Source: Flavobacterium sp.
Lineage (GTDB): Bacteria > Bacteroidota > Bacteroidia > Flavobacteriales > Flavobacteriaceae
Direction of reading: 5' to 3'
Assembly: GCF_027484205.1 (NCBI RefSeq)
Contig: NZ_JAIXUB010000001.1
Span: 65,528-129,527, forward strand
Length of the DNA stretch: 64,000 nt
Shown here: piece by piece, positions 23,898-38,442 of the stretch
Layout of the letters: each line of letters begins with the position of its first letter
Numbering within the stretch: the first letter of the stretch is position 1
Program-made: the position numbers and the translations under genes
Notes under the pieces: model-generated
The model's database searches: none
The model's input: only the letters and a program-made list of their open reading frames with translations
What the model was told of the DNA's origin: nothing

Positions 23898-23905
23898 TAT
23901 ATTTG
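23898..23905 (+). promoter_or_regulatory. Candidate array-head (Pc-like) promoter -7 element TATATTTG
   Basis: Exact TAnnTTTG facing the cassette array; nearest upstream TTTG is only 14 nt away, shorter than the usual spacing. Confidence 0.5.
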
Positions 23906-23918
23906 AATACTACACGCT

Positions 23919-23990
23919 GTTATGTAGCGCAAATATTACCTTATTTGGGTGTATTACCGCTATAACGTAGCGACTATATAAGTTAGTGAC
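23919..23990 (+). other. Array left boundary, candidate attI-like site (imperfect hairpin followed by G|TTAGTGAC)
   Basis: GTTAGTGACAATTG (from 23982) is complementary to the first cassette's end CAACTGTCACTAAA; hairpin at 23919-23966. Confidence 0.55.
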
Positions 23991-24034
23991 AATTGTAAAA
24001 AAAACGGAACGAATTCAATAACTTAATTTAACAA

Positions 24035-24556: not shown

Positions 24557-24564
24557 ACAACTGT

Positions 24565-24699
24565 CACTAAAAACGGTTTAAAAAAATGGTGTGGCTCGGG
24601 ATTTTTCAGAAATGGTAATTGTTGAATCAAAGTTTTATTTACATTTGTAATTGGCAGTGAATGAAGTACGCAACTTCTTGTAGCCGCAAAACGTTAGGC
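24565..24699 (+). repeat. attC-like site 1 (family A)
   Basis: R'' CACTAAA ... GCAACTTCTTGTAGCCGC AAAAC GTTAGGC; TACATTTG at 24640. Confidence 0.85.
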
Positions 24700-24721
24700 T
24701 CAACTATTACAACTAATACTT

Positions 24722-25405
24722 ATGGAAGGAAAAAAGCTAATAAGAACATTATTATCATTAAGCATATTATTCATTCTGATTACGATTGGTTTTTATTTAT
24801 ACCAATTTGGTAGTTTAAGACTTTCAGAAAATAACGAAGATTGGTCTAACTTTTCAAACTATTTTAATGGAATTTTGACACCAATATTAACCTTGTTAAA
24901 TTTACTCATGTTTGCTTACCTAAGTTTTAAATTAGTACAAATTGAGGATGATAGAAATCACTGGACATTACAAGAATTAGCAAGACCATATGCAAATTTA
25001 ATAACTGAAAACACTTCTGGAAGTGTCGAAATTACGGTTCATAATGTTGGACTTGGGCCAATGATATTAACCGATTTCAGAATTTTCAAAGATCCTGAAA
25101 AAACATACAGGAACTTTTACTATTTAATTAATGACATCGCTGATTATGAAAATATAGGTCCAGAAATTCAACCAAAAATTGATTCTTTTGAAGTCAACTC
25201 TGAAAGTGGTGCAATTGCGAAAGACAAATCGCATTGTTTATTGAAAGTTTATTTTTTAGAGGATAGTCAACAAAACATGCAATTTTTAGATTTAATACGT
25301 ATTCATTTGAATGATTATACTCTATCCATAACTTATAGTGATATGTATGGTAGAGAAATAGAATGTATGCGCGAAAAGTTAAATTTTAAACCTTGGAACA
25401 ACTAG
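24722..25405 (+). CDS. Cassette: hypothetical membrane protein (two N-terminal TMs, WSNFSNYFNG motif)
   Basis: ORF fills the interval between sites 1 and 2. Confidence 0.7.
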   Translation: MEGKKLIRTLLSLSILFILITIGFYLYQFGSLRLSENNEDWSNFSNYFNGILTPILTLLNLLMFAYLSFKLVQIEDDRNHWTLQELARPYANLITENTSGSVEITVHNVGLGPMILTDFRIFKDPEKTYRNFYYLINDIADYENIGPEIQPKIDSFEVNSESGAIAKDKSHCLLKVYFLEDSQQNMQFLDLIRIHLNDYTLSITYSDMYGREIECMREKLNFKPWNN

Positions 25406-25409
25406 CAGC

Positions 25410-25542
25410 GCCTAATAGACGTTTCTCGAAATTGCGAATTTTGTGGTAAGTTCACGTTTACGTTTCGCAAGAATTTTTATCTTTAACAGAAAATAATTCG
25501 TTCCGAAGTTCGCAACTGACGAGAAGCGGCAGAACGTTGTGC
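25410..25542 (+). repeat. attC-like site 2 (family B)
   Basis: GCCTAAT A GACGTTTCTCGAAATTGCG ... CGCAACTGACGAGAAGCGGC AGAAC GTTGTGC. Confidence 0.88.
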
Positions 25543-25581
25543 GTCATTTTAACCGAACAAAACCGTAGAAAAAAATAAACA

Positions 25582-26034
25582 ATGTGTGATTTTACCAAAG
25601 GCATTAAATTATGTAGTTGTGAAAACGAAACTATAAAATTTCGTGAACAAGAGTTCTATAAAATGTTAGAAGGCGAACTTGTTAAAATTCCCAATAAAAA
25701 GAATGAAAATGTCCCCATAATTTTTATTTGGAGATTATTCAAATTGAAATCTAAAAATAATAATTACGAAATTGGAAGGTATATGCTTCCTGTAAACGAT
25801 ATTGGAAATGGATTAGATGCTGAATGGATTGCTTTAAATTTAAATTCAGAAAATTGTTTTGATTTTGATTACACTCCTGATGAGGGTGATAATTTATTCA
25901 TTCAGACCAACGAAATTGCTTCAGCATATATTTCATTCATTTTTAGGAATGGTCAATGGAAAATTGACCATTACAGCCCTTTTTCGTGGGATATTAGACA
26001 TGTTAAAGATGGACAAATTAAGGAAACTTTATAA
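25582..26034 (+). CDS. Cassette block gene 1: hypothetical protein
   Basis: 150 aa ORF; similar to the next ORF. Confidence 0.7.
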   Translation: MCDFTKGIKLCSCENETIKFREQEFYKMLEGELVKIPNKKNENVPIIFIWRLFKLKSKNNNYEIGRYMLPVNDIGNGLDAEWIALNLNSENCFDFDYTPDEGDNLFIQTNEIASAYISFIFRNGQWKIDHYSPFSWDIRHVKDGQIKETL

Positions 26035-26043
26035 AAAGTAATA

Positions 26044-26556
26044 ATGTTTGAAATAATAGATATAAATTTCGTTGAAGCAGATATACTTGAAAAAGAAATA
26101 ATTTCTTTTCACATTCCTCATTCAAAGATGCTTAATGAAGACCACAAATATTTTAAAAAAAGAATTGTTTGGACTTTAATAGAATGGAAAGACACTGAAG
26201 ATTATCCATATAAAGAAATTGAAGAAGACGAGAAAAACGGAATTCGTTATCATGAAATACCTGAACAAATAGTAAGTGAAATTAATGGAATTACAAGTGA
26301 ATCTATTAAAGATAAAATTAACGTGAATGATTGTTTTGCTTTTAATTACAACCCAAGAGAATTCGATAAATTGATATTGAGAAGTGATTACGAGTTTCAA
26401 GAGATTAAAGCAATTAGACAGCCTTACAATAGAATATTCAAATATATTGCTCTGACTTACAAAAACGGAGTTTGGGAGATTGATGAGAAAGTGGAAAAAA
26501 GAGTTTTTAAGAAAAGTAGAACAGGAATAGTAAAAATAATGTTAGAAAATGAATAA
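26044..26556 (+). CDS. Cassette block gene 2: hypothetical protein, distant paralogue of 25582-26034
   Basis: Shared motifs W.L..K, NG......N...CF.F.Y.P.E.D.L, YI.....NG.W.ID. Confidence 0.7.
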   Translation: MFEIIDINFVEADILEKEIISFHIPHSKMLNEDHKYFKKRIVWTLIEWKDTEDYPYKEIEEDEKNGIRYHEIPEQIVSEINGITSESIKDKINVNDCFAFNYNPREFDKLILRSDYEFQEIKAIRQPYNRIFKYIALTYKNGVWEIDEKVEKRVFKKSRTGIVKIMLENE

Positions 26557-27076
26557 TGAAAAAAACAGAAAAATGAATGAAAATATAAGATATAGAATAT
26601 ATAAAACCAGTATAAATATTTTCTTTATTTCAATTTATAGTAATTCAAAAGTTTATGAAATCAAAAGTGGTAAAAGTTCAATTTTACCGGGAATAAAATA
26701 TTCAATAATAACAATTTTATTTGGATGGTGGGGATTTGGATTTCCTTGGAAAAAAATTCAAGAGTTAAAAAATTCATTAACGGCATTACATATAAATTTC
26801 TCTGGTGGAGAAGACTATACCAAGGTAATAACTGAAATGGATTACGAAGAAAAAACAGTTTGGGTTTATAACAATCTAAAACATGAACTTTTTGAAAAAA
26901 CTAATATTGAAACTATTGACATTATTATTGATTTACAAACTAATTCAAAATTGACTCTTGAAGGAAATATAATTTTTATAATTGAAAGTTTAAAAAAGTT
27001 GAACATTGTAAACTTAAGAAATTCAGATATAGAAGAAATTATTAATAAAATAAAGCAGTTTGATTATAGAAATTAA
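26549..27076 (+). CDS. Cassette block gene 3: hypothetical membrane protein
   Basis: TM segment ITILFGWWGFGFPW; overlaps the previous stop codon. Confidence 0.65.
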   Translation: MNNEKNRKMNENIRYRIYKTSINIFFISIYSNSKVYEIKSGKSSILPGIKYSIITILFGWWGFGFPWKKIQELKNSLTALHINFSGGEDYTKVITEMDYEEKTVWVYNNLKHELFEKTNIETIDIIIDLQTNSKLTLEGNIIFIIESLKKLNIVNLRNSDIEEIINKIKQFDYRN

Positions 27077-27295
27077 ATGAAAAATGAAATGAAAAAATTA
27101 AATATAATTTTAATTGTATTCTTAAGCTTAACTTCTTTAATATTTGCAGTATTAAATAACTCTAACGCATAAGATTTAAAAACAACTGAAGTAGAACTAA
27201 ATTCAGCAAGAGATTCTTTATCAATGTATCAAGGGAATTATAACAAATTGAATGTACAATATAAAATTTTGGAAAAATCACTTGAAGAAAAATAA
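27077..27295 (+). pseudogene. Small TM/coiled-coil ORF with an in-frame stop
   Basis: MKNEMKKLNIILIVFLSLTSLIFAVLNNSNA*DLKTT...LEEK*; internal TAA at 27170-27172. Confidence 0.55.
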
Positions 27296-27303
27296 AACCG
27301 AAC

Positions 27304-27437
27304 GGCTAACTGCAGTTACAAGAAATTGCTAGGCTTGATTTTTGTCAGAATTCGTTATGCAGAATCAAAGTTTTGGTTATATCTGTAATTGACAGTGAAT
27401 GAAGTACGCAACTTCTTGTAGCTGCGAAACGTTAGCA
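27304..27437 (+). repeat. attC-like site 3 (family A)
   Basis: GGCTAAC T GCAGTTACAAGAAATTGC ... GCAACTTCTTGTAGCTGC GAAAC GTTAGCA. Confidence 0.9.
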
Positions 27438-27445
27438 GATATAGC

Positions 27446-27841
27446 ATGAAAAAAGAACATCAAAACATATTAGAATTAATTCCTAAAGATAAAGGTGATT
27501 ATAAAACTGCTCAAAATCTAAAAAAACACAATATTTCGAAATTAAAATCAATTATACCAAAATTATTGGAATGGATTCAAGATATGAATTGGCCAATTTC
27601 AGTAATAGTTGCTGAATATTTAGTCGATAATTTTAGTGAAATAGAAAACGAAATATATCCAATACTAAATACTAACGATGACATTTGGAAATGGAATGTA
27701 ATAAATATTTTTAAGGATTTAATTGGAGATGAAAAAAGCATTGAATTAATAAAAAGAATAGCTGAAAATCCAACAGAAATGGAAAAACTTGAAGAATTAG
27801 ATTTACTATGCAAAGAAGTTATTGAAAAACGAAAATGGTAA
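27446..27841 (+). CDS. Cassette: DUF5071-like protein
   Basis: LIPKDKGD and LLEWIQDMNWPIS motifs, recognised from memory of the family. Confidence 0.65.
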   Translation: MKKEHQNILELIPKDKGDYKTAQNLKKHNISKLKSIIPKLLEWIQDMNWPISVIVAEYLVDNFSEIENEIYPILNTNDDIWKWNVINIFKDLIGDEKSIELIKRIAENPTEMEKLEELDLLCKEVIEKRKW

Positions 27842-27851
27842 AAACTACATC

Positions 27852-27986
27852 TGCTAACAGCAGTTACAAGAAATTGCTATGCATGGGATTTATCAGAATT
27901 GGAAATTGTTGAATCAGAGTTTTGTCTATATTTGTAATTGTCAGTGAGTGAAGTACGCAACTTCTTGTAGCGGCGAAACGTTAGCA
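27852..27986 (+). repeat. attC-like site 4 (family A)
   Basis: TGCTAAC A GCAGTTACAAGAAATTGC ... GCAACTTCTTGTAGCGGC GAAAC GTTAGCA; TATATTTG at 27927. Confidence 0.9.
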
Positions 27987-28007
27987 TCAATTTTAAATTT
28001 ACGATGT

Positions 28008-28298
28008 ATGTCATTTTTGAAAAATATATTTGGGAAAAAATCTAATGAAGAAGGTACTTTAACTCAAATTAGATTTACAAAAGATAACATTAAAAATTTC
28101 CCGAAATACGAAGCACTGTTGATTGATGGAAAAATAAAGTTTGATTCTTCTGGAAGGCTTCGTTATCTGCATGGAGCACCCGTTGGAGATATGTTATTAA
28201 TAAGAATGAATAAGGATGGTAAAGCTGTCTACAAAGAGTCTGCTAAAGAATGGTTTGATCCAGAAAGTCAAAAAGCAAAAGACTTTTTTTGGAAGTAA
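28008..28298 (+). CDS. Cassette: hypothetical protein (start MSFLKNIFGKK)
   Basis: The ORF-track start 27948 lies inside site 4; the ATG at 28008 is the plausible start. Confidence 0.65.
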   Translation: MSFLKNIFGKKSNEEGTLTQIRFTKDNIKNFPKYEALLIDGKIKFDSSGRLRYLHGAPVGDMLLIRMNKDGKAVYKESAKEWFDPESQKAKDFFWK

Positions 28299-28305
28299 AA
28301 ACTGC

Positions 28306-28444
28306 TGCTAACATTGGTTTTCATCAATGGCAAGGCTTGGGATTTATTTGTCATTGGAAAGGTTTTTAATTTAAAGTTTTGTTAATACTTGTAAAGGCTT
28401 GGGCTTGGTTCGTCACCACTTCTTGAAGCCGCGAAACTTTAGCC
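28306..28444 (+). repeat. attC-like site 5 (family A; R' core mutated to TTT)
   Basis: TGCTAAC ... CCACTTCTTGAAGCCGC GAAAC TTTAGCC. Confidence 0.8.
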
Positions 28445-28479
28445 GTCAGTTTGACAGAACGCAAAAAAATCTAAACAGA

Positions 28480-28893
28480 ATGAAAAAAATAATTAGTTTA
28501 ATATATTTTTCAATTTTAATGAATAGCTGTGCTTGGCTTGATGAAAGTGAACATCAAAAAATTATTGGACAATATGAAATTGGCTGGAACGACCTAGAAT
28601 CTAATCGAGCAATTACGAAAAAAATCGAAAATTCTGAAAGTAATTATCAAGAAATTGTTGGATGTTATGTTTTTGCAGTCGGTCATAATGAAAATTTCAT
28701 AATAGCAAAACAACACCAAAATTTTAATTCGAAAACTAATTATTACTTAATAGATATTAAAAAAAATGAAAAAGATTACTCAAAAGGTGTTTTCGGACCT
28801 TTAAACGAAACCGAATTTGAAAAAATGAAAACAAAATTTAATATTAAAAACTTAAAATTTGACTTAAAATTTGCTGATGAACCATATAATTAA
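28480..28893 (+). CDS. Cassette: lipoprotein (DUF3997-like)
   Basis: Lipobox LMNSC; VGHNENFIIAKQH and YYLIDIK motifs; start corrected out of site 5. Confidence 0.6.
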   Translation: MKKIISLIYFSILMNSCAWLDESEHQKIIGQYEIGWNDLESNRAITKKIENSESNYQEIVGCYVFAVGHNENFIIAKQHQNFNSKTNYYLIDIKKNEKDYSKGVFGPLNETEFEKMKTKFNIKNLKFDLKFADEPYN

Positions 28894-28956
28894 ATCAAAC
28901 AAAAAATCGAAAAGAAAAAATCGAAAAGAAAAACTCATAAAAGAAAAAAAACGAAC

Positions 28957-28975
28957 GGCTAACAGCAGTTTACAA
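28957..28975 (+). repeat. attC-like site 6, collapsed (R'' and start of left arm only)
   Basis: GGCTAAC AGCAGTTTACAA, then AT-rich sequence and the ATG at 28993; no loop, right arm or R'. Confidence 0.6.
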
Positions 28976-28992
28976 ACATTTTTTACATCGTT

Positions 28993-29343
28993 ATGAAAGA
29001 ACTTTATCCTGAATTAATAGACTATATTTTCCAACATTGTTGGAAATATTACTCTGAAATAGAGAAAGAAGCAATCGACCATCATATTGGAGCTGTGAAG
29101 TTTGATAAATTTGCTTTTCAAAGTCAGAAACTTGATGATGCAAAAACCAGATTTTCAACAGAAAATCCAGAAGCTTTAAAATTATTGGAGAATGGTTACT
29201 CAGAATTTATTAAAACTACAGCGACTAGAATTTTTAATGAGCACGAAAACGAATTGGAATTGAATTTTTGTCCTGGATGTGGAAAAATAGCCAGAACTCC
29301 AAAAGCCAAACAGTGTAGGTTTTGCAGAAATGATTGGCACTAA
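28993..29343 (+). CDS. Cassette: hypothetical protein with a C-terminal zinc ribbon
   Basis: CPGCGKIARTPKAKQCRFC. Confidence 0.7.
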   Translation: MKELYPELIDYIFQHCWKYYSEIEKEAIDHHIGAVKFDKFAFQSQKLDDAKTRFSTENPEALKLLENGYSEFIKTTATRIFNEHENELELNFCPGCGKIARTPKAKQCRFCRNDWH

Positions 29344-29351
29344 AAAACGGC

Positions 29352-29483
29352 AGCTAACAGCGGTTTCTCTCAATTGCGAATTTTGTAGTAAATTCACGTT
29401 TACGTTTCGCAAGAATTTTTATCTTTAACAGAAAAAAATCAGTTCCGAAGCTCACAATCTCTCCAAGCGCCGAAACGTTAGCA
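29352..29483 (+). repeat. attC-like site 7 (family B)
   Basis: AGCTAAC ... GAAAC GTTAGCA; loop shared with sites 2, 12, 13, 14. Confidence 0.87.
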
Positions 29484-29522
29484 GAAAGCGTCTCCAAAAA
29501 TCACGTAACTAAATATGAAAAG

Positions 29523-29837
29523 ATGTTTAAATTAAAAAAAATAACAATTTTACAAATTGAAAAATTTTTAACAATTATATTTTTCTTGATTTTTGTAATC
29601 TTAACAAGAAACACATTAATTGAATCTTACAATAGAATAGAAGATTTGAATACTGAAAAAACTATCAGAATTGTAAATGATAAATCTCAGAATGAAAATT
29701 TGGTTAATTTTACAAAAAAAGACAAAGCTAATTTCTCAAATCATTTGGATGTTTTAATTTTACTCATAATTGGTTTTTTTATTATGTTTTACAAGGTTCA
29801 GAAAAAAATAAATGTAGAAAAAAATAAAATTGAATAA
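29523..29837 (+). CDS. Cassette: small two-TM protein
   Basis: Two hydrophobic segments. Confidence 0.6.
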   Translation: MFKLKKITILQIEKFLTIIFFLIFVILTRNTLIESYNRIEDLNTEKTIRIVNDKSQNENLVNFTKKDKANFSNHLDVLILLIIGFFIMFYKVQKKINVEKNKIE

Positions 29838-29911
29838 TCGGTTTTTAAAAGTTAAAACTAATTGCAAAATAATTGCAAAACAAAAACAGAATTACTAAAA
29901 AAAACGGCTTC

Positions 29912-30050
29912 TACTAACAGCCATTTGCACCAATGACGAGGCATGGGATTTATCAGAAATTGGAAAGGTCTTTAATTAAAAGTTTTGGTTACATTTGTGA
30001 AGGCTTGGTCTTGGTTTATCGCCACTTCATGAAGCCGCGAAACGTTAGCG
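29912..30050 (+). repeat. attC-like site 8 (family A)
   Basis: TACTAAC ... CCACTTCATGAAGCCGC GAAAC GTTAGCG; TACATTTG at 29990. Confidence 0.87.
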
Positions 30051-30087
30051 GTAATTTTAAAAAACGCACGTGAATAAAATACGAAAC

Positions 30088-30528
30088 ATGAAATATCAAA
30101 TCAAAACCGATTATAAAAGACTTGGACTTCATGATTCTCATCTATCTGAAATCAAAATAGAAAATGATAAAATTTTTATAAATTTAGATTGGGGATTTTT
30201 AGAAAATTATTCCGAAGATAAAACTATAGAAGCAATTATATTTGATAAGGCTAAACTTAATTTAGATAATATTTACAATCAATCATTTAAAAAGTATGAT
30301 GAAATTGGTTTTGTAGATATTGAGAAACCTGATAATTTTGAATTAGATGAATGGCTTGTAATGGAAAATAAATATCAATTCAATGACAACAAACATATTT
30401 TTACATTAAGTATAACAAACTATTCTTTGTACTTACAATGGACAATAGTTTGTATAAATGCAGAATTAAATTGGGACAAGTTCATTTTACATAAGAATTG
30501 GCTAACAGGAGAACAGTCGTTGGGATAA
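30088..30528 (+). CDS. Cassette: hypothetical protein
   Basis: ATG at 30088 (GTG at 30070 possible); LHDS N-terminal motif. Confidence 0.65.
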   Translation: MKYQIKTDYKRLGLHDSHLSEIKIENDKIFINLDWGFLENYSEDKTIEAIIFDKAKLNLDNIYNQSFKKYDEIGFVDIEKPDNFELDEWLVMENKYQFNDNKHIFTLSITNYSLYLQWTIVCINAELNWDKFILHKNWLTGEQSLG

Positions 30529-30536
30529 AACACTAT

Positions 30537-30699
30537 CGCTAACACAGGTTTTATGCTATTGCTGCGCTTGGGCTTTTTTGGACGCTTGGTCTCTTATCTT
30601 TTTTCTTTTTCATCACGTTTTATTTCCAAAAGTTTTCGGTATATTTGTTATCGGCTGTGATAAAAGCAGCAACTGTCGCAAAGCGGCATTACGTTGGTG
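30537..30699 (+). repeat. attC-like site 9 (family C)
   Basis: CGCTAAC A CAGGTTTTATGCTATTGCTG ... CAGCAAC ... GTTGGTG; TATATTTG at 30640. Confidence 0.85.
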
Positions 30700-30745
30700 G
30701 CAAGACTACATCAACAGACAAAAAAATCAATAAATAAAGAAAAAA

Positions 30746-31834
30746 ATGAACTTTTTAAAAAATATATTTGGCAAAGAAAACACCAAAATAAATTCAAATA
30801 ATGACTTTTGGAATTGGTTTCTACAAAATGAAAAGACTTTTTTCAATGTTGTAAAAAACAACAATAATATACATAAAAACTTTTTTGATAAAATTTCTCC
30901 CAAATTGGCGGATTTAAGAGAAGGATATTTTTTTGTGTCTGGAATGTTTAATGACGAAACCGCTGAACTCGTTTTGACAGCAGATGGCAACGTTAAGAAT
31001 ATTAACTTTGTAGAGGAACTTGTAAATGCTGCACCAAAAATTGAAGGATGGAAAATAACTGCTCACAAAGAACCAATGGATATTGAAAATATAGAAATTA
31101 AAATGGGAAACTATATTTTTAATAGTGAAAATATTTTCTTTTACTCAAACGATTTTAAAGAATATCCAGATGAAATTGATATTTCTGTAATTCACAATGA
31201 ATTGAATGATATAAACAAAGAACAAGTTGGTAATGGTACTTATATTTTTCTAGATAATTATTTGGGGGAAATTGATTTTATTAATAACATTGATAATTTA
31301 TCAATAATAGGAAAACAAGAAAGTCAAAAAGAGCTAATTCCTATATCTAAATTAAAAGATTTTCTAAATTGGCGTAGAAAAGAATTTATTGAAAAATATG
31401 AAGGTGTTCGATATAATACAGAAGATGATGAATATTCAATAATGGAAGCCGAATTGGAAAGTGGAAATAAATTATTAGCTGTAATTAATACAACATTGTT
31501 AAATTGGGATAGAAAAGCATCACATCCTTGGATTTGTATCTTAACAATGAAGTTTGATGGAAAAGATACAAATGGAATGCCAAATGACAATGATTATAAA
31601 TTACTTAATGAAATTGAAGAAGAAATTTTACAAAACCTAATTGATAAAGATGGCTATTTGTATATCGGAAGACAGACTGCTAACAGTGAACGTGACATTT
31701 ATTTTTCTTGCAATGATTTTAGAAAACCGTCAAAAGTTTTTGATGAAATTCAAAGAAAATATCACAACAATTTTGAAATAGATTTTGAAATATTTAAAGA
31801 CAAATATTGGCAAGCATACGAAAGATTTACATAA
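30746..31834 (+). CDS. Cassette: DUF695-domain protein
   Basis: FWNWF, ELVLTADG, APKIEGW, LDNYLGE; C-terminal GMPNDND...YIGRQT...ERDIYF...DKYW. Confidence 0.7.
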   Translation: MNFLKNIFGKENTKINSNNDFWNWFLQNEKTFFNVVKNNNNIHKNFFDKISPKLADLREGYFFVSGMFNDETAELVLTADGNVKNINFVEELVNAAPKIEGWKITAHKEPMDIENIEIKMGNYIFNSENIFFYSNDFKEYPDEIDISVIHNELNDINKEQVGNGTYIFLDNYLGEIDFINNIDNLSIIGKQESQKELIPISKLKDFLNWRRKEFIEKYEGVRYNTEDDEYSIMEAELESGNKLLAVINTTLLNWDRKASHPWICILTMKFDGKDTNGMPNDNDYKLLNEIEEEILQNLIDKDGYLYIGRQTANSERDIYFSCNDFRKPSKVFDEIQRKYHNNFEIDFEIFKDKYWQAYERFT

Positions 31835-31843
31835 AAGCCCAGC

Positions 31844-31871
31844 CACCAACATGCAGTTTGGCAAACAGTTT
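31844..31871 (+). repeat. attC-like site 10, collapsed (R'' joined directly to the next cassette start)
   Basis: CACCAAC ATGCAGT TTGGCAAACAGTTT; TTGGCAAA is complementary to the next cassette's end TTTGCCAAC at 32510. Confidence 0.65.
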
Positions 31872-31905
31872 ATAAAAACTACTAAAAATAAAAAATATAT
31901 TAATT

Positions 31906-32028
31906 ATGAGTGATAAAGAAAAACCAGAAAAACCTACAAATCAATCAGAAAAACCAACTGATGGAGGTTCAACATTTATAACTTTGAATGATGAAACACC
32001 AAGCCGAAATACAACAAACAAAGACTAA
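31906..32028 (+). CDS. Cassette: 40-aa hydrophilic peptide, missed by the ORF track
   Basis: MSDKEKPEKPTNQSEKPTDGGSTFITLNDETPSRNTTNKD*, preceded by an A-rich leader. Confidence 0.4.
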   Translation: MSDKEKPEKPTNQSEKPTDGGSTFITLNDETPSRNTTNKD

Positions 32029-32484
32029 CCAAAATAGCAAAGTTTTAAAAGCTTTATTATAAGAAGTGGAAATTATAGTCAAATGTTTACCGTTTATCTC
32101 AATTGATTTTTGGTAAGTAAATAGAATATTAATTCTTGACTTTTCTTCTGTTTCTGAAGTTATTTTATCGAAGTTGTCTGGCGCAATTCCATTAAACCTT
32201 AAATCTAAAGGAGTAATGGCTTTTCTTGTATGGAATACGATGATGCCTCCGAATAATACTATTGAATAAAGTATGTAGCTTTTTAACGTATAAAACTTAC
32301 CTTCTATAATGTCAGAAACAGAATATCCGAAAACGGCTAATATTAAAGTTAATAAATAAAAAAGTCTATTTCTTGTTTCTCGTATAGAGTCATTGATGTG
32401 AATAAGCAAATCTTTTGCTTCACTTAATTGAATACTAAATAATTCGTTTTTTGTTTTCATATTTGTAAAATTAAACATTTTCAC
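31969..32484 (-). CDS. Cassette: three-TM membrane protein in reverse orientation
   Basis: Only substantial minus-strand ORF in the array; probable ATG at 32460 (MKTKNE). Confidence 0.7.
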   Translation of the reverse strand: MKMFNFTNMKTKNELFSIQLSEAKDLLIHINDSIRETRNRLFYLLTLILAVFGYSVSDIIEGKFYTLKSYILYSIVLFGGIIVFHTRKAITPLDLRFNGIAPDNFDKITSETEEKSRINILFTYQKSIEINGKHLTIISTSYNKAFKTLLFWLVFVCCISAWCFIIQSYKC

Positions 32485-32511
32485 TTAATTCAGTGGAAAA
32501 TAAAACCGATT

Positions 32512-32676
32512 TGCCAACACAGGTTTTATGCTATTGCTGCGCTTGGGCTTTTTTAAAGGTTTGGTCTCTTATCTTTTTTCTTTTTTTAAAACGTTTTTTC
32601 TTTCAAAGTTTTCGGTATATTTGCTTTGGTCTTTGACAAAAATCAGCAACAGACATAAAGCCTGGGAACGTTAGCT
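32512..32676 (+). repeat. attC-like site 11 (family C)
   Basis: TGCCAAC A CAGGTTTTATGCTATTGCTG ... CAGCAACAGACATAAAGCCTG GGAAC GTTAGCT; TATATTTG at 32616. Confidence 0.9.
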
Positions 32677-32700
32677 GCCATTTTCATAACACTCGATTTT

Positions 32701-33279
32701 ATGAGAAACTATATCTTTATTTTAACTCTAATTGTCTTATTTGGATGTTCAACTCCAAAGCAGCTTAATGATTACTATAGTGAAGATAAAAACATAAATC
32801 TTTATACTTTTGTAGGCAAGAAAATATCTGTAACAGAATTTGATCCAAACGCAGAAGAAAAAGGAGAAACTATTGTTGACAAAGTGACTGGTGAAAATCA
32901 AGTTAGAAAGTCGCACATAATGGATTTAGGATTTCGATGTAAATATTCAGTCCTGAAAAACGTCTTCAATAAATTAGAAAACGACACTATTGATTTTGTT
33001 GCTTATGATCATTACGGAAATCCCAGGTTTTCGGAATATAAAACTGTATTACTTTACATTTCAAAAAGCACAAAAGGAAATTATTATTTTCATCAAAAAT
33101 ATCAGTTCGACTACTTGGAAAAAACTTCTGATGGAAAGTTTTATGGATACACATATGACAGAAAAGAAAAAAGAAAAAGAATCACATTTAAAAACAAAAA
33201 AATTGCCAGTATAGAAGATTTATTTGTTAAGAAAAAAGAAGAAGTATTCAAATCGCTATTTAAAAAAAACGGCAACTAA
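32701..33279 (+). CDS. Cassette: lipoprotein
   Basis: Lipobox LFGC; its stop TAA lies inside R'' of site 12. Confidence 0.7.
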   Translation: MRNYIFILTLIVLFGCSTPKQLNDYYSEDKNINLYTFVGKKISVTEFDPNAEEKGETIVDKVTGENQVRKSHIMDLGFRCKYSVLKNVFNKLENDTIDFVAYDHYGNPRFSEYKTVLLYISKSTKGNYYFHQKYQFDYLEKTSDGKFYGYTYDRKEKRKRITFKNKKIASIEDLFVKKKEEVFKSLFKKNGN

Positions 33280-33405
33280 CAGCCGTTTCTCGTAATTGCG
33301 AATTTTGTAGTAAATTCACGTTTACGTTTCGCAAGAAATTTTATCTTTAACAGAAAACAATTAGTTCCGAAGTTCGCAACCTCACCAAGCGCTGGAACGT
33401 TAGCC
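33274..33405 (+). repeat. attC-like site 12 (family B)
   Basis: AACTAAC A GCCGTTTCTCGTAATTGCG ... GGAAC GTTAGCC. Confidence 0.88.
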
Positions 33406-33431
33406 ATTATTTTACCTAAACGACACGAAAA

Positions 33432-33893
33432 ATGAAAAAATCGACCAAAATTTTCTTGACAATACTTCTAACTTTAATAATTGGAATTTTTATTCATCCA
33501 CAGAAAGTAATTTATGAGGCAAATATTGAAGGAAAAGTAGTTGACGAAAACAATAAGCCTGTTATCAATGCAATAGTTTACAGAATTGAAAAAGAATATT
33601 ATACAAATGAGGAAATTGGATCTAATGAATCAAGAGATTTAAGAACAGAAAGTGTAAAAACAGATGATAGTGGAAACTTCAAGTTTTATGAAAAATCAAG
33701 AATCGATTGGTTTCATACTCCATTAGATTTACCAATTGGCTACTGTTATGCAGAATTCGAAATTGAGAAAAATGGATTTGAATTTTACAAAACAAAGTTT
33801 GGTGAATTTGAACAATACAGAATTGAAAATTGTTACGCTTGTGAAAAAGTATTATTTAAGCCAATTATTACTTTAAAAGTAAAAACTAAATAG
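33432..33893 (+). CDS. Cassette: carboxypeptidase-regulatory-like (transthyretin fold) secreted protein
   Basis: IEGKVVDENNKPVINA...KTDDSGNFKF...IEKNGF. Confidence 0.65.
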   Translation: MKKSTKIFLTILLTLIIGIFIHPQKVIYEANIEGKVVDENNKPVINAIVYRIEKEYYTNEEIGSNESRDLRTESVKTDDSGNFKFYEKSRIDWFHTPLDLPIGYCYAEFEIEKNGFEFYKTKFGEFEQYRIENCYACEKVLFKPIITLKVKTK

Positions 33894-33923
33894 AAATTTA
33901 AAACAGCACTAAAAAAAAATAAC

Positions 33924-34051
33924 GGCTAACAAGTGTTTGTAGCAATTGCGAATTTTGTGGTAAGTTCACATTTACGTTTCACAAGAATTTTTATCTTTAA
34001 CGGAAATTCGTTCCGAGGTTCTCAACTGCGTTAAGCGGCGGAACATTAGAC
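33924..34051 (+). repeat. attC-like site 13 (family B; R' core ATT)
   Basis: GGCTAAC ... GCGGC GGAAC ATTAGAC. Confidence 0.85.
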
Positions 34052-34078
34052 ACAATTTTATCGCAGAAAACTAAAAAA

Positions 34079-34729
34079 ATGAGAAATCTAATAATTACAT
34101 TTTATTTATTAATAAGTGCAATAACATATTCACAAAACGCAGAAAACAATTTTCCAAGTATTGTTGAACAGAAAACAGCTTATTTTCATAAAGACAACTT
34201 AAAACCATTTACTGGAAATCTTATATTTAAAGATGATGAAACAAATTTAATAATTAAATCAAAGATTATAAATGGTTTTGAAACTCTTTCTGAAGTATAT
34301 AATCAAAAAAATGAACTTGTTCGATTATTAGAAAATGGAATTGATGCTGAAATACAAAAAACAACAACACATAAATCTAAATTTTTACCTAAAGATAAAT
34401 TTACTGACACATTAAATATTGAGCATAAAACTGTTATTATTAGCTATATAAATAACAATAAAACCAAAGAGAAAATAAAATTTAATGGTATTGTTTCATT
34501 TAACAATACTAAACTATACTATAAAAATGGAATAATCTTTAAGATAGTAAATTTTTATGATGAAGATTTTAAAAGAATAAAAGAAAGCTATGAAATATTT
34601 TATACTGAACTTGGAAATATAGAATTTGCTGGTGAAGAGAAAATATTTAATGGAAACTACAAAAAATGGAATGAAGAAGGAAAAGTAATAGAAAGTGGAG
34701 TATACAAACAAGGGAAAAAAGTAAAATAA
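34079..34729 (+). CDS. Cassette: secreted protein with a C-terminal MORN-variant/YwqK-like repeat
   Basis: Signal peptide; FNGNYKKWNEEGKVIESGVYKQGKKV. Confidence 0.6.
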   Translation: MRNLIITFYLLISAITYSQNAENNFPSIVEQKTAYFHKDNLKPFTGNLIFKDDETNLIIKSKIINGFETLSEVYNQKNELVRLLENGIDAEIQKTTTHKSKFLPKDKFTDTLNIEHKTVIISYINNNKTKEKIKFNGIVSFNNTKLYYKNGIIFKIVNFYDEDFKRIKESYEIFYTELGNIEFAGEEKIFNGNYKKWNEEGKVIESGVYKQGKKVK

Positions 34730-34737
34730 AAAACTGC

Positions 34738-34870
34738 GTATAACAGCTGTTTGGCAAGATTGTTAATTTTGTAGTAAATTCAAGTTTACTTATCGCAAGA
34801 AATTTTATCTTTAACATAAAATAATCAGTTCCGAAGTTCGCAACTAACGAGAAGCGGCGGAACATTAGCA
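34738..34870 (+). repeat. attC-like site 14 (family B; R' core ATT)
   Basis: GTATAAC ... CGCAACTAACGAGAAGCGGC GGAAC ATTAGCA. Confidence 0.87.
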
Positions 34871-34908
34871 GTCATTCTGCGAGAAAATCTGAAAATCAAG
34901 AATTCATT

Positions 34909-35409
34909 ATGAAAGAACAAATATTACTTTTAATTTCATTCTCTATATTTTTCCTTTCTTGTAATAAAACAGAAGATAAAACTTCTGAATTTTTAAAAAA
35001 ATATGATAAAATCAGACTTATCTCTTATAACAAACACAGAGATGTTTTCAGACCAAAATATGAATTAAAAATAGAAAAAGACACCATTCAAATACCAAAC
35101 ATAAAGGTTATTGATAATATTGTCTTAGACAAATACTTTTCACAAAAAATAGCAGAAGTTTTACTTTCGACAGAAAAAGAATGTATAGTGGCTGATTGTT
35201 ACAATCCAAGACATCTAATCTTATTTTATAAACAGAATAAAATTGTTGACTTTTATGAGTTCTGTGCTGAATGTGGTGGAAGTAGACAATCAAAAAATAT
35301 TAATTTTCCAGAACTTTGCACAGAAAAAGGAGACAGAATTATTGAAGTTTTTAAAGACCTGAAATTGAAAAATGACGGCGAAGAAACTGAAAATTACAAA
35401 TATTTCTAA
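34909..35409 (+). CDS. Cassette: lipoprotein with a Cys cluster
   Basis: Lipobox FLSC; ADCYNPRHLILFY...EFCAEC. Confidence 0.7.
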   Translation: MKEQILLLISFSIFFLSCNKTEDKTSEFLKKYDKIRLISYNKHRDVFRPKYELKIEKDTIQIPNIKVIDNIVLDKYFSQKIAEVLLSTEKECIVADCYNPRHLILFYKQNKIVDFYEFCAECGGSRQSKNINFPELCTEKGDRIIEVFKDLKLKNDGEETENYKYF

Positions 35410-35419
35410 TAAGAACGAC

Positions 35420-35556
35420 TGCTAACAGCGGTTGCAAAAAATGGCGTTGCTCGGGATTGATTTGAATTGAGAAAGATTTTTAATTAAATTTTCGGTATAT
35501 TTGTGAGGGCTTGGTCTTGGCTTATCTCCACTTCTTGTAGCCGACGAACGTTTTCT
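35420..35556 (+). repeat. attC-like site 15 (family A)
   Basis: TGCTAAC ... CCACTTCTTGTAGCCG ... GAAC GTTTTCT; TATATTTG at 35496. Confidence 0.87.
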
Positions 35557-35564
35557 GCTATTTT

Positions 35565-36344
35565 ATGAAAAGTGAAGAATCAAAGGAAATTTTAACAAGT
35601 GTAGCTAAATCTCTATTTAGTACTATTCCTTATGCTGGCACTGCATTAACAGAATTAGTGTTTGATTATAATGGAAGGTTAAAACAAAACAGATTAAATA
35701 AATTTATTGAAATTCTTGCTGAAAGCTTCACAAAAAATTCTGATATAAATTTAAACAATATAAAAACAGAACATTTTAATGACTTATTTGAAGCTGTTAT
35801 AAAAAGAGTAGTTAGCACAAAATCAGAATCAAAATTGAGAAGATTTAAAGACATTTTGATTAACGAATTAATAAATCCAACCGAATCAGATACTGTTGAC
35901 ATTTATCTTGATTTAATTAACAATTTATCAGATAACGAAATTTTAATTCTAAACCATCATCGCCACTTTGACAAATCTTATATTAAAGAAATTGCCCGTC
36001 GTGATGAATTAAGGGAAGAACTCAATAAAGCTTTAGAAAACAAAAAACGTGAATCAAATATTATGGATATATCCTCATCCTCGCATAACAATGAGACAAT
36101 TAGAGCAATTGAGACAGAAATTCGTATGATAGAGGAAAAACATAATAAATTAAAAGAATTTCGTTCGCCTGCTTTTTACAATTTGGATGAGAATAAATAT
36201 TTTTTCTATATCCAAAGATTATATTCTCAAGGTTTATTAATTGACATTGGTATTGGCAGAATTGGAACAGAGCCATTTTACATTATGAGTATAACAGAAT
36301 TTGGAATTAATTTTCTAAAGTTTCTTAAAGACTTTAAAGATTAA
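35565..36344 (+). CDS. Cassette: cytoplasmic protein resembling Abi-alpha/DUF4393-like proteins, with a coiled-coil insert
   Basis: IPYAGTALTELV...NRL; YLDLINNLSDNEILIL; QRLYSQGLL...ITEFGINFL winged-helix-like tail; family call by eye only. Confidence 0.45.
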   Translation: MKSEESKEILTSVAKSLFSTIPYAGTALTELVFDYNGRLKQNRLNKFIEILAESFTKNSDINLNNIKTEHFNDLFEAVIKRVVSTKSESKLRRFKDILINELINPTESDTVDIYLDLINNLSDNEILILNHHRHFDKSYIKEIARRDELREELNKALENKKRESNIMDISSSSHNNETIRAIETEIRMIEEKHNKLKEFRSPAFYNLDENKYFFYIQRLYSQGLLIDIGIGRIGTEPFYIMSITEFGINFLKFLKDFKD

Positions 36345-36351
36345 AAAATAC

Positions 36352-36506
36352 AGATAACACAAGTTTTATGCTATTGCTTCGCTTAAGCTTTATTTAGAAA
36401 GTTTGGTGATAATTTTTTTTAATCACGCTTTCTCTCTCAATTTTTCGGTATATTTGTTAAAACAAGTCTTAAAACACAACAGACGTCAAGCCAAAAAACG
36501 TTCTGT
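36352..36506 (+). repeat. attC-like site 16 (family C)
   Basis: AGATAAC A CAAGTTTTATGCTATTGC ... AAAAC GTTCTGT; TATATTTG at 36449. Confidence 0.82.
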
Positions 36507-36527
36507 GATGTTTCAAAAAATATATCT

Positions 36528-38330
36528 ATGAAAATAAGCATCTTAATAATATCCCTTTTTATTTTTGGACAAACTTTTGGCCAAAATAAACAATTGAAAG
36601 ACAGAATTAATCAAGTAGAAAACAACTTAATTCCCTATGTGCCTGTAAAAGGTTTTAATGGTTGGAATATTATTGACAGAATGAAGTATTACAAAGTTCC
36701 AGGATTAAGTATTGCTGTAATAAAAGATTACAAAATTGACTGGGCTAAAGGATATGGATTAGCAGACACAATTCAAAAAACAAAGGTTACAACCGAAACG
36801 ATGTTTTCAGCAGGTTCAATCAGTAAATTTTTAATGGCAGTTACAGCTCTTAAATTAGTTGAAGAGGGAAAAATTGGCTTGGATAGCCCAATTAATGATT
36901 ATCTCACTTCTTGGAAAATTACCGAGAATGACTATACCAAAAAAACGCCTGTTACTCTAAGAATGTTGTTAAGCCATTCGGCAGGTACTTCTCAAACTTC
37001 CTATTTTGGTTTTACACCAACAGAACCACTACCAACGATTGTAGATGTGTTGAATGGTGCGAAAATTTCACAAACAAGAGCTGTAGTTGTAAATAGTGAA
37101 CCCAACAAAGAATTTCGATATTCTGGTGGAGGTAGTATGATTGCGCAAATGGTTTTGATGGACGTTAGCAAAAAGAGTTTTGGTAATTTAACACAACAAG
37201 TACTATTTGACAAAATTGGAATGACCAACTCAACATTTGAACAACCAGTTCCAGAAAAATTTTCTAAACAATGTTCTTGGGCTTATTCGCAAGCCTCATG
37301 GTTTAAAGGAATGCCTTATGTCTATCCACAACAAGCAGCAGCAGGTCTTTACTCAACTCCAACTGACTTGGCTAAATTTTTCATAGATGTTCAAAACTCA
37401 TTCAATGGAAAAGGCAAAGTTTTGAGTGAAGAAATGACAAAAAAAATGCTAACATCGCAAGTAAATGTTTCTGATGGTGGCTATAAAGAACAAATGGCAA
37501 TTGGACCATTTCTAATTCAACGTACAGACAACAAAGACCCAAATGGAGTTTACTTTGAATTTACTGGTGTTAATGCAGGTTTCTTGGCTTATGGAATAGC
37601 GAGTGTACAAGGAGGAAATGGAGTTATTGTAATGCTTAATTCTGGTGACAATCAAAACGGAATTGGAAAAGAAATTAGAAGAGCCGTAGCCAAAGTGTAT
37701 AATTGGACTAACTTTTTACCCGATGAAATTCAACCAATCAATCTGCCTGAAGATGAATTAAACAAAATGGCTGGACGATATAGAATGGCTACAGACGAAG
37801 TACTTTATTTAAGAAAAGAAAAAAACTATCTAGTAGAGAATATAAACAATGGAAATGAAATTTACTGCTTCCCAATCTCAAAAGATAGCATTGTATTTAC
37901 GGATTACAACATCAAGGGCTTCTTTAAAAGAAATGAAAATGGAGAAATAATCGGGCTTCAAAATATTTATCAAGAAAAGCCAATGCCAAAAATGAAAGAC
38001 AATGAATTTTCGCCAAGTGAATATTTAAATATGCAGCAATATGATGAAGCCAAAAAAGCATTTGCAGCAATGAAAATGAATGAAGGACAAATTACATACT
38101 TAGCCTATGACTTGATGAATAAAAAGCCATTAAACCCATTTGCCGTAAAAACCATTTTAGATTTAGCAACAGAGCAACATCCGAATTCTTCAATGGTTTA
38201 CAGTCGTTGGGGTGACTATTATTTAAAACTAAATGACAAACAAAATGCATTAAAGAGCTATCAAAAAGCCATAGATCTTGACCCAAACGACCAACAAACA
38301 AAAGATATTTTGGAAACCTTAAAAAAATAA
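36528..38330 (+). CDS. Cassette: secreted serine hydrolase (beta-lactamase/PBP-like family) with a C-terminal TPR
   Basis: VPGLSIAVI, SxxK = SISK, LLSHSAG, FRYSGGG, YPQQAAAGLYSTPTDLAKF; TPR YQKAIDLDPND. Confidence 0.85.
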   Translation: MKISILIISLFIFGQTFGQNKQLKDRINQVENNLIPYVPVKGFNGWNIIDRMKYYKVPGLSIAVIKDYKIDWAKGYGLADTIQKTKVTTETMFSAGSISKFLMAVTALKLVEEGKIGLDSPINDYLTSWKITENDYTKKTPVTLRMLLSHSAGTSQTSYFGFTPTEPLPTIVDVLNGAKISQTRAVVVNSEPNKEFRYSGGGSMIAQMVLMDVSKKSFGNLTQQVLFDKIGMTNSTFEQPVPEKFSKQCSWAYSQASWFKGMPYVYPQQAAAGLYSTPTDLAKFFIDVQNSFNGKGKVLSEEMTKKMLTSQVNVSDGGYKEQMAIGPFLIQRTDNKDPNGVYFEFTGVNAGFLAYGIASVQGGNGVIVMLNSGDNQNGIGKEIRRAVAKVYNWTNFLPDEIQPINLPEDELNKMAGRYRMATDEVLYLRKEKNYLVENINNGNEIYCFPISKDSIVFTDYNIKGFFKRNENGEIIGLQNIYQEKPMPKMKDNEFSPSEYLNMQQYDEAKKAFAAMKMNEGQITYLAYDLMNKKPLNPFAVKTILDLATEQHPNSSMVYSRWGDYYLKLNDKQNALKSYQKAIDLDPNDQQTKDILETLKK

Positions 38331-38442
38331 ACAACTGAATTTATAAAGAAAAGAAAAATGTCATTTAAAATGATTCGTCAATTGCATGAAAAATCAATCA
38401 TTCCTACTGATGTTTCGATACAAACTTATTAAAAGACACAAT

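Follow-up and report, generated by a model that had tools for sequence, protein, structure and literature searches.

Cassette-borne repeats in Bacteroidota as candidate attC analogues with a cleavage-adjacent bulge

The ~132-nt repeats that close the gene cassettes of a Flavobacterium sp. array are, as judged from comparative sequence analysis, probably attC analogues, i.e. cassette-borne recombination sites, of an integron-like platform widespread in Bacteroidota. The array lies in a stretch of 64 kb, here called the window, and a genome scan found the same site type at at least 119 loci, nearly all of them in Bacteroidota, where about 4 would be expected by chance; a covariance model gave 318 matches in 676 kb. 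Consensus and covariation were derived from 286 distinct sites of the window and 119 other loci. None of the att sites in window positions 23000-45000 matches any of the 4227 Rfam families at E<=1. We regard the system as a real variation on the integron principle, apparently undescribed, and infer how it works.

Covariation shows selection for pairing between the two arms of every site. Mutual information on a sequence-only alignment pairs columns 9-121 to 27-103, which are Watson-Crick in 79-100%; at a single position as many as four pair types occur, with the arms about 100 nt apart. Paired cells amount to 89.8% versus 26-37% across all slid registers, and 581 double-sided changes compare with 173 in shuffles, so that the hairpin originally predicted holds up in the covariation check proposed for it. 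The canonical attC register, with the partners slid by +3, pairs only 29.8% and is not supported. The R box consensus is GCTAAC ... GTTAGC, after which column 8, A in 99% of the 286 distinct sites, faces a five-base bulge at columns 122-126 (R-R-A-A-C, with C126 in 100%), as anticipated from one nucleotide after the R'' AAC versus five before GTT. The recurrent A/C mismatch and the T/G pair likewise reappear in the larger set, as pair 22/108 (A.C in 92%, A22 invariant) and pair 13/117 (T.G in 84%), and the 3' arm is one base longer, also as noted at first, in 23% of sites. While the 5' arm (R''-L'') measures 14 nt in 98% of sites, R'-L' measures 18 or 19 nt, which places the surplus bases on the R'-L' arm, beside the crossover; the arm-length count finds no extra bases on the L'' arm in the site alignment. 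Arm lengths and register thus agree with the non-canonical geometry originally proposed. The clean 1x5 loop holds for the family consensus and not for every window site, about five of which have near-intact stems (s02, s03, s04, s09, s13), and s03, put forward as the best example, turned out to be atypical.

Folding of both strands, a check suggested from the outset, gives -18.6 kcal/mol for the bottom-strand arms versus -15.6 for the top, and the bottom strand is the stabler one in 303 of 342 sites; at locus L082 the values are -26.1 (z -4.2) and -21.0, respectively. The corresponding top-strand positions would give the 1x5 loop and two A.C mismatches, hence a fold weaker by ~3 kcal/mol. Many sites also contain a promoter-like TAnnTTTG box on the sense strand, present in 120/342 sites versus 3/342 on the other strand.

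The window array was initially confined to 27304-34870, but actually extends from 23982 to 44158 (Table 1). Its 19 att sites are 128-165 nt long and accompany about 27 ORFs, all except one on the + strand and the majority without Pfam match; the matches are a beta-lactamase-fold+TPR protein, DUF695, SH3_3, HD_4, DUF2695 and WG repeats. One cassette codes for a beta-lactamase-fold protein, and restriction-modification and toxin-antitoxin cassettes are present in related loci. AACGTTAG occurs 11 times in the window versus 1.3 expected by chance, and TAAC-N4-GTT-N85-115-AGC-N4-RAAC-NTT 8 times, always on the + strand, versus 0.01. The arm patterns described at the start recur in the window sites, with left arms of the form N3-G-TT(T)-N6-7-A-TTGC and right arms of the form GCAAC-N7/8-AGC-N3-RRAAC-GTT. 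Complementarity links GTTAGTGAC, within the attI-like start, with GTCACTAAA, the R'' of s01; it likewise links the R'' flank of the truncated remnant at 28957 with the R' flank of s05, and the R'' of the one at 31844 with the R' flank of s08.

Table 1. Coordinates of the cassette array and neighbouring features in the window
Feature	Position	Strand	Remarks
LysM/NlpC-P60 gene	22531-23757	-	upstream of attI-like start; no integrase gene upstream there
attI-like start of array	23898..23990	+	predicted; layout as at other loci
TATATTTG box	23898	+	within attI-like start
two direct repeats (..GTAGCG-N-A(A/T)ATAT..)	~23917-23935 and 23960-23979	+	within attI-like start
ACTATATAA/GTTAGTGAC junction	crossover G at 23982	+	after direct repeats of attI-like start
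whole cassette array	23982..44158	+	19 att sites, 2 remnants, attI-like start; one co-oriented array
s01	24565..24699	+	family A-like 3' arm; degenerate R'' CACTAAA; model R1 101 bits; 13/18 pairs
s02	25410..25542	+	family B; near-intact stem, 16/18 pairs; 3' arm +1 base; 115 bits
s03	27304..27437	+	family A; stem intact; T in place of A after AAC (atypical)
s04	27852..27986	+	family A; 119 bits; 16/18 pairs
s05	28306..28444	+	family D; R' = TTTAGCC
truncated att remnant	28957..28990	+	only R'' GGCTAAC and 5' arm start; fused to next ORF
s06	29352..29483	+	family B; arms poorly complementary, 9/18 pairs
s07	29912..30050	+	family D; covariance-model match
s08	30537..30699	+	family C; central part long
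truncated att remnant	31844..31875	+	R'' CACCAAC and 5' arm start
s09	32512..32676	+	family C; 17/18 pairs
s10	33274..33405	+	family B; chimeric: 5' arm pairs with s12 3' arm (arms inspected)
s11	33924..34051	+	family B; R' = ATTAGAC
s12	34737..34870	+	family B; chimeric counterpart of s10
s13	35420..35556	+	family D-like; 15/18 pairs
s14	36351..36506	+	family C-like; 71 bits
s15	39354..39514	+	divergent; 51 bits
s16	41435..41566	+	family B-like; R'' and R' degenerate; 102 bits
s17	42147..42277	+	family B-like; 98 bits
s18	43133..43265	+	family B; 101 bits
s19	44024..44158	+	family D-like; final site of array; 96 bits

The window sites are partly decayed, with a mean of 13.25/18 stem pairs versus 15.9/18 in sites elsewhere, and gene and protein comparison found no tyrosine recombinase gene in the 64-kb window. 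The locus is an orphan copy, made of an attI-like site and 19 such sites without a recombinase gene, and its activity is doubtful because the recombinase is absent from the window and the sites are partly degenerate. It resembles a CALIN (Cury et al., 2016; PMC4889954) in being an array of partly decayed att sites without a nearby recombinase gene, at least two attC sites with the integrase absent within a few kb being enough for that class; its 19 sites, though, are of the Bacteroidota type and not the canonical attC by whose model CALINs are defined, and it retains an attI-like site.

Comparison between loci shows that each cassette is a mobile unit of its own and that, as in integrons, the crossover falls inside AACGTTA. 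A cassette common to loci L025 and L055 is 99.3% identical behind unrelated upstream sites, and the identity begins in RAAC/GTTAGC and stops at the end of GAACGTTA. Across 214 neighbouring site pairs, the flanks of R''(n+1) and R'(n) are complementary at 5.42/8 positions, versus 2.88/8 within one site and 2.75 in random pairs. The crossover is placed on these two observations; as AACGTT is palindromic, the exact cut position and strand are not resolvable from the sequence. Cassette rearrangement was not seen among the metagenome contigs compared.

The divergent tyrosine recombinase that had been postulated is absent from the window but lies just upstream of the array and co-oriented with it at 11 of 11 evaluable loci, 8 of which were found through att sites and 3 independently by protein homology. 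Both IntI and archaeal XerA resemble it; its top Foldseek matches are 2a3v (VchIntIA) and XerA, and its best NCBIfam and sequence matches are of Xer type (NF040815). The IntI profile TIGR02249 is matched in two stretches with the profile middle skipped, at 214 bits and thus under the 265-bit cut-off. Against the VchIntIA chain 2a3v, residues 80-250 align with IntI 9-179 and residues 271-347 with IntI 242-318, so that 20 residues stand between the blocks where IntI has 62, and a MAFFT alignment with IntI1 has its gap at the same place. The IntI-specific insertion of ~42 residues is hence absent, and none of the recombinases adjacent to the 11 arrays has one; the protein carries an extra N-terminal beta-sheet domain. 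At most of the 11 loci a putative attI-like site, ..ATATAAAC-nA-GTTAGC with direct repeats, follows 36-203 nt past the recombinase stop codon. This layout is seen at L082, L062, L026, L122, L110, L126 and others with species-specific direct repeats; at L124 the first GTTAGC comes after a short att-like match.

A complete platform would accordingly be composed of three parts: the gene of an IntI/archaeal XerA-related tyrosine recombinase with the N-terminal beta-sheet domain and without the IntI-specific insertion; an attI-like site of two direct repeats and then ..ATATAAAC-nA-G/TTAGC, some tens of bases past that gene; and co-oriented cassettes, each TTAGC.. - ORF(s) - ~132-nt att site ending in ..RRAAC-G. 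The att site would act once a single strand, more likely the bottom one, has folded. In that strand an R box of 7-8 bp (GCTAAC/GTTAGC plus a T.G wobble) is predicted; immediately 3' of the cleaved AAC it would be followed by four bulged bases, 5'-TTYY-3', with nothing opposite them, and then by four base pairs, one conserved A.C mismatch and a long helix with G.T wobbles. This bulge-and-mismatch pattern at fixed distances, read by a recombinase without the domain for extrahelical bases, may direct the choice of strand and orientation in place of the extrahelical bases and symmetric unpaired spacer of classical attC. The full joint reading, which we hold to be somewhat more probable than its negation, is an undescribed Bacteroidota class of integrons, either a sister lineage of IntI that has never had the domain for binding extrahelical bases or one from which this domain has been lost, in which the strand is picked via the cleavage-adjacent bulge and the fixed A.C/G.T pattern, the N-terminal arm-type domain acts on the attI repeats, and att-site promoters serve many cassettes.

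It is unlikely that these are ordinary attC sites whose geometry is a lineage flavour within the normal range, moved by a canonical IntI with its gene at another place in the genome. The R''/R' consensus RYYYAAC/GTTRRRY and the G/TT-type boundaries are indeed classical, the small co-oriented ORFs and stabler bottom strand are so too, and classical integrons are reported, in general terms, for Bacteroidota; but the unequal arm lengths are fixed, with their surplus on R'-L' and nothing extra on L'', the canonical register is unpaired, an insertion-bearing IntI is found at 0/11 arrays with an adjacent recombinase, and IntegronFinder surveys list for Bacteroidetes only In0 and one Salinibacter integron, yet the arrays are common in the phylum.

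In principle the arms could also pair in RNA or as a cruciform. A recombinase acting on duplex sites like Xer on dif, the arms reflecting cruciform extrusion or another constraint, seems as improbable as ordinary attC. Although the best sequence matches of the enzyme are Xer-type recombinases working on duplex DNA, and the AACGTT palindrome and the attI-like site resemble duplex core sites, a duplex site would give conservation instead of covariation between variable positions 100 nt apart with four pair types, the conserved non-Watson-Crick juxtapositions matter only in a self-folded strand, and by inspection the site consensus holds no 11-6-11 dif-like arrangement. We regard as more improbable still that the hairpins act mainly at the RNA level (3'-UTR stabilisers, terminators, promoter carriers) or are REP/MITE-like repeats only incidentally linked to a recombinase. 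Such roles would suit a site behind nearly every ORF, the G.U-compatible wobble of the top strand and the sense-strand enrichment of the TAnnTTTG box, but the would-be RNA strand is the weaker fold and without Rfam match, recombination has left its signatures in the cassette boundary within AACGTTA and in the complementarity of R''(n+1) to R'(n), and the recombinase adjoins the arrays at 11/11 loci, with a putative attI-like site at most of these.

Recombination sites of an integron-like platform, the reading preferred here, share with classical integrons (class 1, Vibrio cholerae chromosomal) a recombinase next to an array of mostly small co-oriented ORFs and a putative attI-like site, cassettes that end in an imperfect hairpin with R'' RYYYAAC and R' GTTRRRY (here GCTAAC ... 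GTTAGC), a crossover in G/TT that assigns the R' of each site to the following cassette, a bottom strand that folds better and a site length uniform within the lineage. In classical attC the bottom strand exposes the extrahelical bases G16 and T23/24 on the L'' arm (PMC5027507), and in VchIntIA such bases are contacted by the IntI-specific insertion. This additional domain around patch III was reportedly described by Messier and Roy in 2001, and IntegronFinder uses it as a criterion. The Bacteroidota recombinase differs by lacking the ~42-residue insertion, by its extra N-terminal domain and by its co-orientation with the cassettes; the sites differ by lacking L''-arm extrahelical bases and the symmetric spacer, unpaired and 5-6 nt per arm in the canonical reference (PMC5027507), and by having the crossover-adjacent 1x5 loop (on the bottom strand a four-base bulge), the conserved A.C and T.G juxtapositions, the AACGTT palindrome and, in many of them, the sense-strand TAnnTTTG box. 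Xer recombinases (archaeal XerA 4a8e, 5hxy; XerC/D at dif; pdif modules) are simple tyrosine recombinases without the IntI insertion; they act on short duplex dif to resolve dimers and are not known to be tied to cassette arrays or ~132-nt hairpins. The dif core is a duplex of ~28 bp, with two 11-bp arms flanking a 6-8 bp spacer. Integrons with an 'inverted' integrase, in Treponema and others, generally have the additional domain of IntI along with attC sites of canonical form, and the Bacteroidota enzyme is without that domain. The 'inverted' type is treated in PMC4889954.

The near-absence of Bacteroidota integrons from standard surveys is probably explained by sites and integrase both lacking the classical hallmarks, and from the statements of the published surveys the sites are probably missed by standard integron tools. 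Both the definition of integrons and the search for them rely on the additional domain of IntI and on the canonical attC model. If our reading is true, a phylum-wide integron logic would exist without either hallmark, current surveys would find too few cassette platforms in a phylum that is major among both environmental and host-associated bacteria, and the arrays would constitute a large pool of mobile genes. The system would also provide a natural contrast for which features of a folded att site strand choice really needs, and would bear on the origin of integrons from Xer-like recombinases.

The att sites in the window belong to an integron-like array of 20 kb, in which intergenic elements of 128-165 nt, starting with ..CTAAC and ending with ..AACGTTAGC, lie between ORFs encoded nearly all on the plus strand. 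The original prediction, which had placed the sites at 27304-34870, therefore recognized real sites but took in only the middle part of the array, which comprises 19 full sites (s01-s19, numbered along the plus strand) and two truncated remnants. The remnants, which retain R'' and the first 5'-arm bases only and run directly into the following ORF, have the appearance of deletions in which two cassettes became joined. Within the window, AACGTTAG occurs in 11 copies against 1.3 expected and a composite pattern covering both site ends eight times against 0.01 expected, every time on the plus strand. The window is AT-rich (G+C content ~30%), and its housekeeping genes, encoding prolyl-tRNA synthetase, BshC, acyl-CoA carboxylase subunits and a Por-secretion-tail protein, point to a Flavobacteriia-like chromosome.

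The site type extends far beyond this stretch. Scanning one genome per species for the exact pattern recovered at least 119 loci with the site, against ~4 expected by chance, in Flavobacterium, Chryseobacterium, Pedobacter, Chitinophagaceae, Saprospiraceae, Cytophagales, Paludibacter and others. Among the matches listed, only a 795-nt contig of Pseudidiomarina fusca (L016) and a 1765-nt contig of a gammaproteobacterial MAG (L027) fall outside the Bacteroidota; as both contigs are tiny, transfer is less likely here than contamination or mis-binning. With a covariance model derived from the window sites, 318 matches were obtained in 676 kb, and with nhmmer 375 matches, 286 of them with distinct arms, at a modal length of 130-132 nt; no Rfam family matches the att sites. 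Contigs of four freshwater-metagenome runs aligned to the array displayed no informative rearrangement; these contigs break at att sites, and such arrays should thus be fragmented in short-read assemblies.

Coordinates of features in the window and in other loci carrying the same att site type (L-numbers); carets mark the cassette boundary
Feature	Sequence	Positions	Strand	Remark
att-site array	window	23,982-44,158		
attI-like site	window	23,898-23,990		..GTAGCG..ATAT twice, then ACTATATAA^GTTAGTGAC
Truncated remnants	window	28957-28990, 31844-31875		
ORF, 171 aa	window	31969-32484	-	sole minus-strand ORF inside the array, between remnant and s09
Site s10	window	33274-33405		
Putative circle	window	33406-34736		one att site, two cassettes
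Site s12	window	34737-34870		
Cassette ORF, 600 aa	window	36528-38330		beta-lactamase/transpeptidase fold (PF00144, 5.6e-48), C-terminal TPR
1 kb 3' of the 600-aa cassette ORF	window	38331-39353		no att site
TAnnTTTG inside att sites	window	24640, 27927, 29990, 30640, 32616, 35496, 36449, 39457, 44098	sense	~60 nt before cassette boundary
TAnnTTTG upstream of attI-like site	window	23898		
Metagenome contig breaks	window	25464-25480, 29401, 29954, 30550, 32525-32545, 33308-33323, 41483-41498, 42195-42210		
Second IntI-like tyrosine recombinase type	L099	4283-5212		..LYGCGLRCMEV..DLDFD.., convergent with att sites
Second IntI-like tyrosine recombinase type	L114	4720-5553		as in L099
Recombinase-adjacent cassettes	L125	11197-17996		cassettes here and in L124 include an Eco57I-type restriction-modification protein (1415 aa) and a ParD/ParE pair
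Recombinase-adjacent cassettes	L124	13534-14529		see L125

The architecture of the site was derived from mutual information on a sequence-only HMM alignment, in which the best downstream partner column was sought for each 5'-arm column and one single pairing register emerged. Columns 9-121, 10-120, 11-119 and 12-118 are 79-92% Watson-Crick with four pair types, columns 14-116 through 18-112 are paired in 88-100%, and 20-110, 21-109 and 23-107 through 27-103 are paired as well, while pair 19/111 has G-C in 43% of sites and A.C in 35%. In a model-fitted alignment, 89.8% of cells are paired against 26-37% for each slid register, and double-sided changes number 581 against 173 in shuffles, so that covariation, the lack of which was to count against the original prediction, is present. 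The features that prediction had read from a few sites recur throughout the phylum, namely the AACGTT core, the 1x5 loop with A at column 8 (99%) opposite R-R-A-A-C at columns 122-126 (C126 100%), the T.G pair at stem position 5 (13/117, 84%) and the A.C mismatch at ATTGC/GCAAC (22/108, 92%, with A22 invariant). AAC and A22 are 14 nt apart in 98% of sites. Between C108 and GTT the spacing is 18 nt in 75% of sites and 19 nt in another 23%, the longer spacing corresponding to the optional extra base in the 3' arm.

The mismatches have a polarity. A/C at column 8/126 on the top strand, the cassette sense strand, becomes T.G on the bottom strand, likewise at 22/108 and often at 19/111, while the T.G of pair 13/117 becomes A.C; the bottom strand thus forms a nearly unbroken helix that carries a four-base TTYY bulge and a single A.C mismatch, and the top strand folds with the 1x5 loop and two A.C mismatches. 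Folded at full length, the window sites give noisy minimum-free-energy structures owing to the AT-rich centre, and arm-only folds and covariation were used in their place. With DNA parameters, the arms fold at -18.6 kcal/mol on the bottom and -15.6 kcal/mol on the top strand, the bottom strand being stabler in 303 of 342 sites, and the integrase-proximal site of locus L082 (bottom -26.1, z -4.2; top -21.0, z -2.8) adopts exactly the predicted bulge/mismatch structure. Site s03, the example chosen originally, is exceptional because T replaces A at its column 8. In the wider set, the Bacteroidetes-type -7 promoter box TAnnTTTG occurs in 120/342 top strands, 3/342 bottom strands and 25/342 shuffled sequences; the att site may thus provide the following cassette with a promoter.

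Where one cassette ends and the next begins can be read from the flanks. Bases past GTTAGC of one site complement the bases before GCTAAC of the following site and not those of the same site (e.g. s03 GTTAGCAG and s04 CTGCTAAC; s06 GTTAGCAGAAAGCG and s07 CGGCTTCTACTAAC), with 5.42/8 complementary positions for 214 neighbouring site pairs in all DNA collected versus 2.88/8 within sites and 2.75/8 for random pairs, which is the signature of circularising cassettes cut in R', as in integrons. This reading is borne out by a natural experiment, a 597-bp cassette with 99.3% identity between Flavobacterium celericrescens (L025) and F. aquaticum (L055). The identity starts within RAAC^GTTAGC of two upstream sites that are unrelated to each other, covers the ORF together with the complete att site belonging to it and ends at GAACGTTA^; a cassette is therefore TTAGC.., ORF and att ..G, with the crossover within AACGTTA. 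A crossover at R'', with the att site upstream of its own ORF, was rejected on account of this shared cassette and of the lone GTTAGTGAC with which the array opens. Sites s10 and s12 are chimeras of one another: each 5' arm pairs with the 3' arm of the other site, perfectly so in the case of the s10 5' arm. This is expected if a circle had inserted into another att site through a crossover in the conserved centre and not at G^TT. As a general rule, mid-site crossover was rejected, since s09 and most sites elsewhere are self-complementary.

In the window, the ORF beside the array start, where the integrase is expected, encodes a LysM/NlpC-P60 hydrolase, ten other large ORFs encode no recombinase, and tblastn with Bacteroidota recombinases revealed no remnant. 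Elsewhere, eight att-bearing loci yielded full-length tyrosine recombinases to a tblastn probe, each encoded upstream of the att sites in the orientation of the array. Conversely, close homologues on long contigs from a protein search gave four loci, one cut at the contig end; att sites co-oriented with the recombinase lie downstream in each of the remaining three (3/3), which brings recombinase-array linkage to 11/11. In most loci, species-specific direct repeats lie 36-203 nt past the recombinase stop codon, the second of which leads into ..ATATAAAC-nA-^GTTAGC, the start of the first cassette. The window has the same layout, with a GTTAGTGAC complementary to s01 R'', and thus its array opens at a putative attI whose integrase gene is gone. 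The greater degeneracy of the window sites, with a mean of 13.25/18 stem pairs versus 15.9/18 elsewhere, fits relaxed selection. One array of the L125/L124 set contains an IS110-family transposase.

The recombinase family, with at least 8000 members at E<=1e-30, matches NF040815 ('site-specific tyrosine recombinase/integron integrase', XerA type) best in NCBIfam, while the integron integrase profile TIGR02249 is matched in two stretches without its middle at a score under the cut-off. Among solved structures, archaeal XerA gives the best sequence matches, and the top structural matches of an AlphaFold model (pLDDT 77.6) are 2a3v and XerA. Catalytic residues are present by inspection, and in the model the first ~60 residues fold into a small domain, a beta-sheet plus a helix, that matches nothing in Pfam. 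Aligned to VchIntIA (2a3v), residues 80-250 correspond to IntI 9-179 and 271-347 to IntI 242-318, thus leaving 20 residues in the protein versus 62 in IntI; the same gap appears against IntI1, the sequence of which served as a tblastn probe only, all conclusions on the recombinase resting on NCBIfam, PDB and Foldseek. The segment missing here is the IntI-defining domain. It reportedly holds the extrahelical bases in the VchIntIA structure (MacDonald et al. 2006, Messier and Roy 2001), and its absence matches the missing extrahelical bases of the sites.

Could these be normal attC sites on which a canonical IntI acts? Classical attC sites share the direction of the strand asymmetry, the bottom strand being the more stable fold. 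Compared with their reference geometry (Nivina et al.), however, the R''-L'' arm has zero surplus bases and the R'-L' arm four or five, directly beside the crossover, and with partners slid by +3, the canonical spacer register, pairing drops to 29.8%; the standard attC geometry, a fit to which would have counted against the original prediction, does not describe them. Recombination of the duplex, or an RNA-level or REP-like role, might be proposed instead, but none of these rivals explains covariation, arm geometry, cassette boundaries and recombinase linkage together. For an integron-like system, the folded bottom strand would be the substrate, the R box (GCTAAC/GTTAGC) would supply the cleavage site, and the adjacent bulge and the fixed A.C/G.T positions would carry the strand and orientation information which in classical integrons comes from extrahelical bases and the spacer. 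The N-terminal domain is a candidate for attI-repeat binding, given a weak structural resemblance to full-length lambda integrase.

Bacteroidota are not known to be covered by the taxon-specific attC models of Ghaly et al. 2021. For Bacteroidetes, the IntegronFinder 2.0 survey reports In0 elements alone, joined later by a single complete integron in Salinibacter (PMC9024848), the 2016 IntegronFinder paper does not mention the phylum (PMC4889954), and the archaeal-integron paper names Bacteroidota only in a list of phyla with integrons detected. No description of the system was found in the openly accessible full-text literature. At the level of sequence comparison, discrete cassettes with the crossover in AACGTTA and arms selected to pair are demonstrated, and the arrays are shown to be linked to a specific recombinase family and to an attI-like site; the system is apparently an undescribed integron-like variant, whose sites are told apart from attC by comparison with the published geometry.
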